Shown: positions 563 to 3,797 of the stretch, in pieces
Layout: each line of letters begins with the position of its first letter
Numbering within the stretch: the first letter of the stretch is position 1
Origin: Giardia intestinalis
Taxonomy: Eukaryota
DNA: 3,797 nt
Reading direction: 5' to 3' (one strand)
Assembly (NCBI GenBank): GCA_000002435.2
Contig: AACB03000034.1
Notes under the pieces: model-generated
Database searches by the model: none
The model's input: only the letters and a program-made list of their open reading frames with translations
Told to the model about the DNA's origin: nothing
Translations under genes and position numbers: made by a program

Positions 563-1483
563 GTGTGCGAGTGCAACGAAGGACTCCAACCTAATACTGA
601 ATCGACTGAATGCCAACCAATCAGTAACTGTAACACAGAGCACTGTTTGGAGTGCACCAGTGAAGGTGCCGATAAGGAGGTCTGTACAAAGTGTCTGTCT
701 GAGTACTACCTCACCCCAACCAGTCAATGCGTATCTGACTGCACGACCCTCAAGGGCTACTACGGAAATGACACTGACAGAAAGTGCAAGAAGTGCAACG
801 ATGCGTGCGTAGAGTGCAAGGGTGAGGGCGCTGATAAGTGTACGGCTTGTCCTGCTGGGAGGATGCTTCAGTATACAGATGCTGATACTCCTGCCAATGG
901 GGGCACGTGCATGAACCAGTGCAGCGTGAGTTCTACAAACGATGGATGCGCAGAGTGTGGGGCTCAGATAGGAGGAACTGCATACTGCTCAAAGTGCAAG
1001 AACACTCAACAGGCACCACTGGATGGCAACTGTGCGGCCAATACGCGAACACGATTTTGCACTACGGTGAGTAATGGAGCATGCACTCAATGTGAAAATA
1101 ACTACTTCCTCAAAGATGGCGGTTGCTATCAGACAGATAGACAGCCTGGCAAGCAAGTGTGTACTACAGTGCAGGGAGGAAAATGTACAAAATGTGCCAG
1201 TGGTCTAACGGCTGATAATGGCGATTGTTCCAATAAAAGGTGCCATCTTAGCTGCGAGACATGCACGGCTGCTAACGACGCTAACGCCTGTGCTACATGC
1301 AGCACTGGATATTACAAACCGCAGAGTGCTGGGACAAAGTGTAATCCGTGCTCTGAGGGGCTCGCTGGGTGCAGGCAGTGCACGGTGTCATCCACCGGTG
1401 CGTTCATGTGCTTCGTGATGGGCGACGGCACTGGCGACAACACCGGCGGAAGCGTCAACAAGAGCGGCTCTACTGGGCCATAG
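563..1483 (+). CDS. Largest open frame segment of unit 1 (VSP cysteine-rich ectodomain fragment, 306 aa ORF; the GTG start is an ORF-caller artefact)
   Basis: Supplied ORF 563..1483. CxxC repeats throughout, GGCY at 1118-1129, ends NKSGSTGP* just before the TM segment. Confidence 0.45.
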
Positions 1484-1485
1484 CA

Positions 1486-1568
1486 GGGATTCCGTGGCTG
1501 TGGTCGTTGTCGTGGGGGGCCTCGTGGGCTTCCTCTGCTGGTGGTTCGTGTGCAGGGGGAAGGCGTGA
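1486..1568 (+). other. C-terminal TM helix + CRGKA cytoplasmic tail + TGA stop of unit 1 (out of frame with ectodomain)
   Basis: Translates as ...[24 protein letters not shown]. Bases 1504-1590 are identical to 3424-3510. Confidence 0.8.
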
Positions 1569-1575
1569 CTTGGGT

Positions 1576-1582
1576 AGTGAAT
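1576..1582 (+). promoter_or_regulatory. Giardia polyadenylation signal AGTGAAT (AGTRAAY), 8 nt after the stop
   Basis: agtgaat at 1576-1582 directly downstream of TGA 1566-1568. Same spacing as in unit 2. Confidence 0.7.
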
Positions 1583-1594
1583 GCTGTACAATGT

Positions 1595-1645
1595 GTGATA
1601 TGGTGATAGTGGGTGATAATGGTGATGATAGTGGAGTGTGATATG
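1595..1645 (+). promoter_or_regulatory. Inter-unit spacer made of GTGATA/GGTGAT repeats running into the ATG (candidate promoter/initiator region)
   Basis: GTGATA at 1595, 1603, 1613 and 1638, GTGATG at 1622; gtgtgatATGcacaaagg. The core ggtgatagtgggtg (1602-1615) recurs at 26-39. Confidence 0.4.
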
Positions 1646-1970
1646 CACAAAGGCTGAGGGGGAGTGTGCACTGCTTGTAAAGCAGATAACGGCCTGTTCA
1701 AGAACCCAGTTACACCTCAGAAGCCTGGTAGTGAGTGCATCCTCTGTCATGATGTCAATGGGGCAGATGGATATACAGGGGTGGCTAACTGCGCACAGTG
1801 TACCAAGTCAGACAGTAGTCCAGGACCTGCCACGTGTACAGAGTGCCAAGATGGATACTACAAGAACTCTCAGACATGTGTCAATGTAATGAAGCTTGTC
1901 TGACCTGCGATGGAAGTGGTCAGAATCATTGTACATCGTGCCCAGAGGGGAAGTACCTGAAGAGTAATCA

Positions 1971-3341
1971 ATGTGTACAAGATACTGGATGCGATGGAAC
2001 ACTTATGCTGACCCGGAGTCGGGAACATGCAAGGCATGTAGTACGATACACGCAGAGTGCACGGCATGCTCCTTCGACAAGGCCACGGGGAAGCCGAAGT
2101 GCACTAACTGCGGGACCAATAAGACCCCCAGGACGGCCCTCGACGGGACATCGACCTGCGTGGCGAAGACGCTTGAAGGATGCGAGGGCGCTGACGAGGC
2201 CTTATTTATGAAGGAGGACAAAACGTGTGCTCTTTGTAGTGATGTGACAGATTCAACTCTTGGTAACGAAGGAAAGGCCAACTGCAAGACATGTACGAAA
2301 ACAGGAAGTGACAATCCAACCTGCTCAGCCTGTCTCGATGGATACTTCTTTGATAGTGGTACTAGTACATGTACAGACAAGTGTGGTGATAACTGTGCCA
2401 CATGCTCTGTTGCTGGTGATCCAAATAAGTGTGAAACCTGCAAGACTGGATACTTCTTAGTAACTACTACAGATCAACAGGGGAAGAAGTGCGTCCCATG
2501 CGATAGCGTAGACGATAAGGGTCGCGAAGGCTGCAGTGTCTGCTCTAACAACGGTGCTTTCAAGTGCACTGACTGTAAGCCTAACTATCGCAAGGAGGGC
2601 AGTACTGGCTCTGTCACATGCACCAAGATCTGTGAAGATGATACTGCCTGTGGAGGAACTTCTGGTGCCTGCGATGCAATAGTGATTGATGATAAGGGTG
2701 TAGAGCATCATTATTGCTCATACTGTGGAGAAGCTAATACGTATCCTATAGATGGGAAGTGTAATAGTGCTAAAGCAAATAATCAATGTGATCAAGGTGT
2801 ATGTACACAATGCACTAACAACTACTTCTTGTATATGGGAGGTTGTTACAAGGTTGATACAGTACCTGGACAACATATGTGCAAGACAGCAGCCAACGGT
2901 GTCTGTACTGCTGTTAATGCCAACAATAGGTACTTCATAGTCCCTGGGGCAACCAATCAGAATCAGTCTGTATTGGCATGTAGCAACTCCCTTGGCACAC
3001 TAGTAGGCACTGGTGATACCTCTAAGGCATATGTGGGGGTAGATGGCTGTTCGGCATGTACGGCCCCAGCAGCTCCATCTGAGACTGGTATGACTGCTGC
3101 TGTGTGTACAGCGTGTACCAACAACAACAAGCCCAACCTGGCTGGGAGCGGGTGCTTCGCATGTACCGTTGACGGATGCTCGCACTGTGGAGCAGGCGTA
3201 AGTGCGAGGCCTGTACCAGTAAAGACCAGAGGCCGAACACAGACGGAACGAAGTGCATCGCCTGCAATATCGACGGGTGCGTCAGGTGCAGCGAGGAGAA
3301 CAAGTGCGGCCAGTGTGGGACGACTACAGGCTGGAGGGTGA
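1971..3341 (+). CDS. Largest open frame segment of unit 2 (VSP cysteine-rich ectodomain fragment, 456 aa; its ATG is internal to the unit)
   Basis: Supplied ORF 1971..3341. CxxC-rich with a GGCY motif. The sequence before about 2000 and after about 3197 in this frame is non-VSP-like. Confidence 0.45.
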
Positions 3342-3399
3342 GGCGTGCGTGTCCACCAAGCCCAGCGGGGGCAACAGAAGCGGCCTCAGTACTGGTGCC

Positions 3400-3489
3400 A
3401 TAGCAGGGATCTCCGTGGCTGTCATCGCTGTCGTGGGGGGCCTCGTGGGCTTCCTCTGCTGGTGGTTCGTGTGCAGGGGGAAGGCGTGA
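3400..3489 (+). other. C-terminal TM helix + CRGKA tail + TGA stop of unit 2
   Basis: [30 protein letters not shown], with tgc 3472 ... tga 3487-3489. Confidence 0.85.
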
Positions 3490-3496
3490 CTTGGGT

Positions 3497-3503
3497 AGTG
3501 AAT
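3497..3503 (+). promoter_or_regulatory. Giardia polyadenylation signal AGTGAAT, 8 nt after the stop
   Basis: agtgaat at 3497-3503, in the same context as 1576-1582. Confidence 0.7.
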
Positions 3504-3516
3504 GCTGTACATATGT

Positions 3517-3555
3517 GTGATAGAGGGTGATAGATATGATAGTGGAGTTGATATG
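3517..3555 (+). promoter_or_regulatory. Inter-unit spacer of GTGATA/GATA repeats running into the ATG
   Basis: GTGATA at 3517 and 3527, then gatagatatgatagtgg, then agttgatATGcacaaagg. Confidence 0.4.
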
Positions 3556-3797
3556 CACAAAGGCCATAGTGGAGTGTGCACTGCTTGTAAGGCAGATAAC
3601 GGCCTGTTCAAGAACCCGGCTGCAACACCAGAGAAGGGTTAGCGAGTGCATCCTCTGTCATGATGTCAATGGGGCAGATGGATATACAGGGGTGGCTAAC
3701 TGCGCCACATGTACGGCACCAAGTGGTAGTCCAGGAGCGGCCACGTGTGATACCTGCAGAGATGGATACTATAAGAACGCTCAGACATGTGAGAAGT
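3553..3797 (+). pseudogene. VSP-family unit 3, 5' partial at window end; N-terminus paralogous to unit 2, one +1 frameshift
   Basis: ATG 3553 reads MHKGHSGVCTACKADNGLFKNPAATPEKG then hits TAG at 3640-3642. VSP reading resumes in frame 2 at 3644 (ECILCHDVNGADGYTGVANCATCTAPSGSPGAATCDTCRDGYYKNAQTCEK). About 80% aa identity to unit 2 residues 1658-1880. Confidence 0.7.

Follow-up and report, generated by a model that had tools for sequence, protein, structure and literature searches.

Introduction

Do conserved ends around divergent cores betray gene conversion among silent gene cassettes? The question is raised by a stretch of 3,797 nt of Giardia intestinalis DNA (contig AACB03000034.1, assembly GCA_000002435.2; hereafter the window), which carries consecutive copies of genes for variant-specific surface proteins (VSPs). 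A first-pass annotation, made from the letters alone, correctly recognised VSP cassettes of the Giardia type, in agreement with Pfam and with homologues, and took their conserved boundaries as a sign of recurrent recombination or gene conversion in a silent donor archive. Our analysis leads to a different answer. We read the window as a portion of a linear array in which 5'-truncated, promoterless VSP copies (psiVSPs) from G. intestinalis assemblage A (WB-like) follow one another head-to-tail, with family-wide ends and mosaic bodies, and we assign this reading a probability of roughly 0.85. The conserved ends are mainly elements common to all VSPs, together with the shared origin of one junction type, and there is little evidence in the window for homogenisation within the locus. 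The evidence for recombination sits in the bodies, not at the ends.

Results

Anatomy of the array

All long open reading frames (ORFs) of the window matched the VSP profile PF03302 of Pfam (cut-off 31.4 bits), with 159 bits for the unit 1 ORF (E=2e-46), 34 bits for the unit 2 ORF and 75 bits for the unit 2 tail. A database search with the largest ORF returned Giardia VSPs only, and its best match was XP_001705784.1 (P0001) from G. lamblia ATCC 50803 (WB), with 99% identity. Both unit 1 and unit 2 contain the GGCY motif of the VSP ectodomain. Three VSP units follow one another head-to-tail on the + strand (Table 1), which is the arrangement of the linear arrays described by Adam (2010). The intergenic gaps measure 66 nt (1569-1634) and 61 nt (3490-3550), as compared with a mean of 60 bp and a range from overlap to 241 bp in the reported linear arrays (Adam 2010, PMC2996952).

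The part of the same study that deals with downstream members of linear arrays describes the initiator (Inr) as never present in them (Adam 2010, PMC2996952), and the Inr motif YAATGTT (PyAATGTT) was not found on the + or the - strand of the window. In frameshift-aware alignments, units 2 and 3 enter the VSP body at about residue 106 of the full-length homologue P0003. Their signal peptide and first module are missing, so that neither is an intact gene, and units without signal peptide and Inr are psiVSPs by the definition of Xu (2020). The proteins P0001, P0002 and P0029 are present in the EukProt source only and not in the current NCBI sets, suggesting their removal from today's protein set, as would be expected if they had been re-annotated as pseudogenes. 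The same junction type between units was found in two independent contigs, L001 and L003.

The ends of the units

The junction block had been reported to recur at 1455-1885 and 3375-3797. The recurrence is real, but it runs from 1470 to 1886 and from 3389 to 3795, with 347 of 421 positions identical (82%). This identity is unevenly distributed over the block. The linker, transmembrane (TM) helix, CRGKA motif and stop codon together reach 94%, and the 3' flank agrees at 22 of 22 positions before a 1-nt insertion, whereas conservation is lowest in the spacer, at 59% and with lengths that differ by 11 nt; the 5' block of the next unit follows with approximately 80-81%. Because the least conserved part lies in the middle, the pattern does not fit one homogenised block. 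The longest identical stretch had been given as 87 nt (1504-1590 = 3424-3510), but these two strings are unequal, and the true run is 83 nt long (Table 1). It does take in the non-coding 3' flank with the poly(A) signal, as had been noticed. Units 2 and 3 share another exact run, 62 nt long, in their 5' blocks (1733-1794 = 3644-3705). Both runs are far above chance, since the longest exact repeat in 100 shuffles had a mean of 11.3 nt and a maximum of 15 nt. The notion of conserved ends around divergent cores nevertheless mixes two pairs: the tail compares unit 1 with unit 2, the 5' block compares unit 2 with unit 3, and the core of unit 3 lies outside the window.

For a family-wide baseline, eight tails were compared: two from the window, three from array units (contigs L001 and L003, from other samples) and three from solitary full-length genes (L002, L004 and L005). 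Units 1 and 2 are 96.2% identical in their final 78 coding nt, and unit 2 shows the same 96.2% with the L001 array unit and with the solitary full-length gene of L002 (unit 1 versus L002, 94.9%). A 30-nt core of the TM-coding tail, GGCCTCGTGGGCTTCCTCTGCTGGTGGTTC, is without variation in 8/8 tails, synonymous and third codon positions included. Exact runs between the window tails and unrelated VSP genes extend over 30-53 nt. This invariance of the 30-nt core points to a putative constraint at the nucleotide level or to family-wide concerted evolution of the VSP 3' end. The tail of L005 carries the invariant core, yet in the rest of this tail just 60-64% of third codon positions agree with the window tails.

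The family-wide character extends beyond the stop codon. We took as extended poly(A) signal the sequence ACUUAGRUAGURAAYRY within 28 nt of the stop, and it stands behind both tails of the window (Table 1). This signal has been described for all 136 VSPs and most pVSPs (Rodriguez-Walker et al. 2022, bioRxiv 10.1101/2022.03.07.483299). As the tail is nearly invariant throughout the family, the identity of neighbouring tails is of no value as an argument for local gene conversion. The 5' block tells a similar story, with approximately 80% identity between units 2 and 3, as against 76.5% between unit 2 and a unit of another sample.

The structure of the junctions

The comparison of array junctions shows a common plan, in which every junction consists of four parts: the VSP tail, the extended poly(A) signal with 8 further bases, a minisatellite and the body entry. 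The first part is the TM helix with CRGKA, conserved at the nucleotide level throughout the VSP family. The second is the VSP-specific extended poly(A) signal followed by GCTNTAYA (positions 15-22 after the stop), which appears at every array junction examined. The third is a short minisatellite of the GGTGATAG type, variable in length, and the fourth the entry into the VSP body, about 105 residues past the normal start. In the array junctions AGTGAAT takes the place of AGTAAAC, and GCTNTAYA, minisatellite and body entry follow, whereas in solitary VSP genes divergence sets in directly after the poly(A) signal. The minisatellite occurs in independent samples and is absent after solitary VSP genes. 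Neither the GGTGATAG-type spacer minisatellite nor GCTNTAYA at positions 15-22 after the stop is mentioned in the portions of the array literature available to us.

The minisatellite, which follows the poly(A) signal and precedes the next unit, has a degenerate period of approximately 10 nt (GGTGATAGNG) with variable copy number, and a conserved GCTNTAYA(A)TGTGTGATA precedes it. Several VSPs of WB annotated in 2007 (P0002, P0012 and P0013) begin with MLYSDSDS. The corresponding ATG falls right behind the AGTGAA hexamer of the upstream unit (AGTGA-ATG-CTG-TAC; 1580-1590 of the window reads AATGCTGTACA), and 'SDSDS' is the translated spacer minisatellite. This makes those N-termini annotation artefacts of array members.

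Array junctions of an apparent assemblage-B lineage seem to be built differently. Many VSP ORFs, apparently of assemblage-B type, end in AGISVTKSSxALCC followed by a stop, without TM helix or CRGKA (L006:4060-4200, P0009, P0024, P0034, P0042 and others), and many of them start with VNDPAGVSIDSLCRPSSSPQA. In L006, the next unit has a start resembling a signal peptide, with GTG replacing ATG.

Mosaic bodies

The cores of units 1 and 2 had been called divergent, and this is borne out: the bodies are essentially unalignable as DNA, with 48-58% identity in a forced global alignment, followed by an abrupt climb to 96-100% in the final ~107 nt. Units 1 and 2 fall in different VSP clades.

Within unit 2, the best-matching relative switches repeatedly. 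Its overall identity to P0002 is 68%, but it contains a run of 73 consecutive identical residues (Table 1), whereas the longest identical run in 5000 permutations was 30. Over residues ~301-390 of unit 2, P0002 falls to 33-57%, and there P0019, a full-length VSP with signal peptide from WB chromosome 5, is among the closest relatives (Table 1). In a triplet analysis of P0001, P0002 and P0019, residues ~96-299 favour P0002 and residues ~300-400 favour P0019, with a max-chi2 of 52.5, whereas the permutations peaked at 19.4 (0/300 reached 52.5). Unit 2 is thus a mosaic between cassettes and a full-length gene through P0002 and P0019, albeit on an evolutionary time scale only.

The nucleotide-level comparison agrees with the protein-level one. 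In a Sawyer-type run test with five units, unit 2 and unit 1 of L001 shared 26 consecutive concordant polymorphic sites (p<0.0002), with an overall concordance at polymorphic sites of just 33%. Further significant tracts comprised 32 sites between units 2 and 3 and 16 sites between unit 3 and L003, and in the latter tract unit 3 is closer to L003 than to unit 2. Metagenome-assembly chimeras were considered as a cause of the nucleotide mosaics and rejected: the shared tracts span at most 83 nt and so fall short of the k-mer of 141 that the k141 contig names imply for the last assembly round, and the protein-level mosaic is independent of L001 and L003, as it uses Sanger-era WB proteins.

The variable bodies are patchworks of tracts of tens of nt to approximately 300 nt that also occur in other array members and in full-length VSPs, the pattern that ectopic recombination or gene conversion leaves behind in the course of evolution. 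Segmental exchange, also of array units with an intact gene, is supported by these sequence comparisons, and we infer gene conversion as the origin of the tracts, as well as any direction of transfer. Recombination among truncated copies, as proposed in the first-pass annotation, is hence upheld by independent mosaic tests, although the argument from end identity that had led to it fails.

Could tandem duplication and divergence alone have produced the same picture, with the ends held by constraint on the TM helix, CRGKA and the poly(A) signal while the cores drifted without recombination? Solitary, presumably functional VSPs keep the tail and the poly(A) signal too, and the junction subtypes group by array, as duplication would predict. 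Units 1 and 2 come from different VSP clades and hence are not diverged duplicates of one another, and the pair-specific identical tracts, together with the phylogenetic incongruence along unit 2, go beyond what rate variation alone would give. We regard this explanation as highly improbable.

Local homogenisation and a donor archive as a proposed alternative

A further proposal, closest to the first-pass annotation, is that the unit boundaries at this locus are kept alike by recurrent gene conversion and that the array is an active silent-donor archive for expressed VSPs, similar to the VSG, vls or pilS systems. Two flank variants, CTTGGG and GCTGTACA, are found in both window junctions despite the lack of relationship between the two bodies, and two adjacent junctions of L003 carry a common variant of their own. 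Moreover, a tract of ~100 residues of unit 2 is 87-100% identical to full-length P0019, and a population study from 2025 reports VSPs to be enriched in gene-conversion events between the sub-assemblages AI and AII (PMC12669663). The unit boundaries themselves lend the proposal little support, as the tail identity equals the family baseline, the spacer within the block is just 59% identical, the 5' blocks of units 2 and 3 are little above a cross-sample pair (80% vs 76.5%), and the array-specific signal comes down to 2 diagnostic sites. Nothing speaks for transfer at the pace at which antigens switch, and switching is described as epigenetic in the relevant part of Adam (2010, PMC2996952). An active donor archive therefore seems unlikely to us.

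Several points do weigh against our own reading of a psiVSP array with family-wide ends. The comparison comprises 8 tails and 7 junctions, with a within-genome baseline drawn partly from other samples, and the contigs L001 and L003 are metagenome assemblies. For the silence of the units we rely on published work. Finally, the two flank variants common to both window junctions were not seen in the other junctions, and their sharing between units with unrelated bodies hints weakly at a degree of homogenisation of the junctions within the locus, or at replacement of the cores.

Frameshifts

Frameshift-aware alignment to homologues revealed approximately 13 frameshifts in 3.8 kb, namely 12 single-base deletions and 1 single-base insertion (Table 1), and after their correction zero in-frame stops remain. 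The tails of units 1 and 2 are both off the body frame in the sequence as given. In the unit 1 tail, two 1-nt deletions relative to unit 2 are found at 1476/1477 (GGTGCC>GGGCC) and 1490/1491 (ATCTCC>ATTCC). The deletions at 3198 and 3317 in unit 2 are not present in the RefSeq-2007 protein XP_001705784.1. The frameshift at 1996 is a contraction of GGG to GG at the end of the 50-nt exact match to L001, the one at 94 is a contraction of GGGG to GGG with respect to a near-identical stretch of L003, and several of the frameshifts sit in G or C runs. This pattern suggests either sequencing or assembly error or very recent mutation as a probable cause.

The odds are about even that these frameshifts, and with them the out-of-frame position of the unit 1 tail, go back to single-base errors in a repeat that is hard to assemble, and that the units are in reality open reading frames. 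The near-exclusive occurrence of 1-nt deletions, the stop-free frame upon correction, the agreement of 425 of 427 residues with XP_001705784.1 apart from the two deletions it lacks, the G-run contractions within stretches otherwise identical to L001 and L003, and the intact ORFs of the array units in L001 and L003 all speak for it. On the other side, pVSPs are divided among three frames in the WB reference, which has been ascribed to evolution (Rodriguez-Walker et al. 2022, bioRxiv 10.1101/2022.03.07.483299), the deletions at 1476, 1490 and 3198 lie outside homopolymers, and the window may represent not the locus of XP_001705784.1 but a near-identical paralogue. Errors of this kind would touch the frames only, and neither the array nor the repeats. 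The observation that the unit 1 tail is out of frame thus holds for the sequence as given, but the conclusion drawn from it, that the tail escapes protein-level selection, is unsafe because the single-base deletions on which it rests look unreliable.

Make-up of the units

Unit 1 is a composite of three VSP body segments. What had been taken for its N-terminus, ECVDGFYFKAGD, lies inside the unit, as the window starts within it: positions 3-137 align to residues 413-458 of the 499-aa VSP P0029, a C-proximal module of long VSPs. Positions ~132-540 resemble residues 210-343 of VSPs of ~400 aa (P0166, 66% identity), in which this segment runs straight into the tail, and positions 492-1565 resemble residues 58-419 of short VSPs (P0121). 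A word-indexed protein search with the unit 1 residues from positions 96-545 gave no matches, whereas an exhaustive HMMER search did find relatives for that part. The first two segments end where their relatives would go on into the TM tail. The fusion could reflect deletions merging neighbouring array units at short common motifs (C.CN.G...C), judging from the segment boundaries.

For unit 2, positions 2208-3486 correspond to XP_001705784.1 at 425/427 residues, the 1-nt deletions at 3198 and 3317 aside. Positions 2982-2990 hold four substitutions within 7 nt (AGCAACTCC, coding SNS), where XP_001705784.1 reads ENP and other VSPs read GNP, and these account for the sole amino-acid differences from XP_001705784.1. 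The protein P0029 (XP_001705783.1), with the accession next to that of unit 2, was considered as unit 3 and as the unit upstream of unit 1; overlapping residues differ in both cases, and it was rejected.

The body entry points vary among array units (GLLFIGGCY, ICTxA or CKSCVVDN). L003:1880-2147 is a mini-unit of 268 nt, made up of the last cysteine module and the tail (GGCKSCVVDNICGECSDGFSLDNGKCVS...CRGKA). The same junction flank stands on either side of it, and in its first part the mini-unit almost equals positions 50-110 of the window.

Other searches

An Rfam scan of both strands of the window gave no matches. The minus-strand ORFs have no homologues of their own and are by-products of a + strand rich in cysteine codons. 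Contig-index look-ups returned no match for the window ORFs, P0001, P0029, P0003 or P0122, and a scan of JGI metagenome contigs with the VSP tail pattern returned none either.

Table 1. Positions of the features in the window and, where prefixed with a contig label, in the comparison contigs.
Feature	Position	Strand	Description
Unit 1	1..1568	+	psiVSP body, 5' end cut by window start; from Pfam, frameshift-aware alignment, tblastn, HMMER
Unit 2	1635..3489	+	5'-truncated psiVSP, complete for its type
Unit 3	3551..3797	+	third 5'-truncated psiVSP, start only, cut by window end
TM, CRGKA and stop, unit 1	1491-1568	+	C-terminal signature of the VSP family
TM, CRGKA and stop, unit 2	3412-3489	+	C-terminal signature of the VSP family
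Longest exact repeat, copy 1	1508..1590	+	83 nt: last 61 coding nt (TM end, CRGKA, stop) and 22-nt 3' flank CTTGGGTAGTGAATGCTGTACA
Longest exact repeat, copy 2	3429..3511	+	unit 2 tail and 3' flank
30-nt invariant core	1518-1547, 3439-3468; L001:1824, L002:11924, L003:1829 and 2097, L004:3084, L005:6628		
Extended VSP poly(A) signal, copy 1	1568..1584	+	ACTTGGGTAGTGAATGC, 16/17 of published consensus; AGTGAA hexamer 1576-1581
Extended VSP poly(A) signal, copy 2	3489-3505	+	ACTTGGGTAGTGAATGC, 16/17 of consensus
Spacer 1	1591..1634	+	non-coding degenerate 10-nt minisatellite (GGTGATAGTG, ~3 copies); Tandem Repeats Finder (TRF)
Spacer 2	3512..3550	+	GTGATAG-type repeats as in spacer 1, shorter
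Junction minisatellite elsewhere	L001:16-44, 1896-1930; L003:24-100, 2170-2215		
Mosaic tract, unit 2 core	2631..2849	+	73 consecutive residues identical to WB array member P0002 (XP_001703902.1)
Mosaic tract, unit 2	3108..3420	+	residues ~301-405, 87-100% identical to P0019 and P0011
Exact match to unrelated array contig	1948..1997	+	50 nt = L001:351-400; ends at GG vs GGG
Frameshifts, unit 1	near 27, 41, 94, 537-553, 1476, 1490		
Frameshifts, unit 2	near 1656, 1868-1884, 1996; 3198, 3317		
Frameshifts, unit 3	near 3566, 3640		

Discussion

The window closely resembles the linear vsp and psiVSP arrays described for G. intestinalis WB, in the parts of the two accounts that we compared (PMC2996952; PMC7000408). 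These arrays likewise consist of head-to-tail units separated by gaps of ~60 bp, their downstream members are without Inr, start codon and signal peptide, their units keep the CRGKA tail together with the extended poly(A) signal, evidence of recombination is reported, and one array may hold members of different clades. Unit 2 is itself among the WB VSPs annotated in 2007 (XP_001705784.1). We see no essential difference, and the window has many single-base frameshifts. The psiVSP arrays of G. muris (PMC7641422) also consist of tandem VSP copies without signal peptide; they are described there as non-transcribed, and recombination or segmental gene conversion is proposed as the route by which they exchange sequence with intact VSPs. 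Unlike the arrays of G. intestinalis, which are not preferentially telomeric, those of G. muris are almost all telomere-adjacent, and they have a GCRGK tail.

A cassette role for arrays of this kind has been suggested before. The downstream array members were proposed as recombination cassettes, with evidence from GENECONV and DualBrothers among vsp genes (Adam 2010, PMC2996952), and for the psiVSP arrays of G. muris 'recombination or segmental gene conversion' was invoked, with a comparison to the VSG and Pneumocystis systems (Xu 2020, PMC7641422). The psiVSP arrays, the conserved tail and poly(A) signal, VSP recombination and the cassette reservoir were thus all published between 2010 and 2022. 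The interpretation put forward in the first-pass annotation is a rediscovery of a published hypothesis, and the independent mosaic tests presented here agree with the published evidence for recombination.

The silent VSG arrays of Trypanosoma brucei are bounded by 70-bp repeats upstream and by a conserved C-terminal and 3' region downstream, and VSG switching demonstrably proceeds by gene conversion into an expression site. Their likeness to the window lies in silent, often pseudogenised antigen genes, in conserved sequence bounding variable cores and in mosaic genes. Like the silent cassettes of the VSG, vls and pilS type, the units of the window are promoterless, truncated and arranged in arrays, and their lack of transcription would follow from the literature. 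To our knowledge, no expression site is known in Giardia and no transfer associated with switching has been shown; switching is described as epigenetic or based on RNA interference.

The discovery value of the locus is small, and its practical use lies in caution. Tail identity between neighbouring VSP units should be interpreted carefully, and so should pseudogene calls based on frameshifts. If the frameshifts are assembly errors, the 'decay' of psiVSPs in such contigs is overestimated, which would affect the count of truly dead 'pseudogenes'.

By analogy with the trypanosome system, one might speculate that psiVSP arrays are an active somatic source of new antigen sequence, with short conversion tracts exchanged in the course of an infection by array units and expressed VSPs. 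Sites of homology or initiation would then be provided by the family-wide 3' tail and perhaps by the minisatellite (GGTGATAG)n, in the manner of the 70-bp repeats and the 3' ends of VSG cassettes. We hold this to be a long shot. If true, somatic donation from arrays would add a layer of diversification at the DNA level to the epigenetic model of antigen switching in Giardia.

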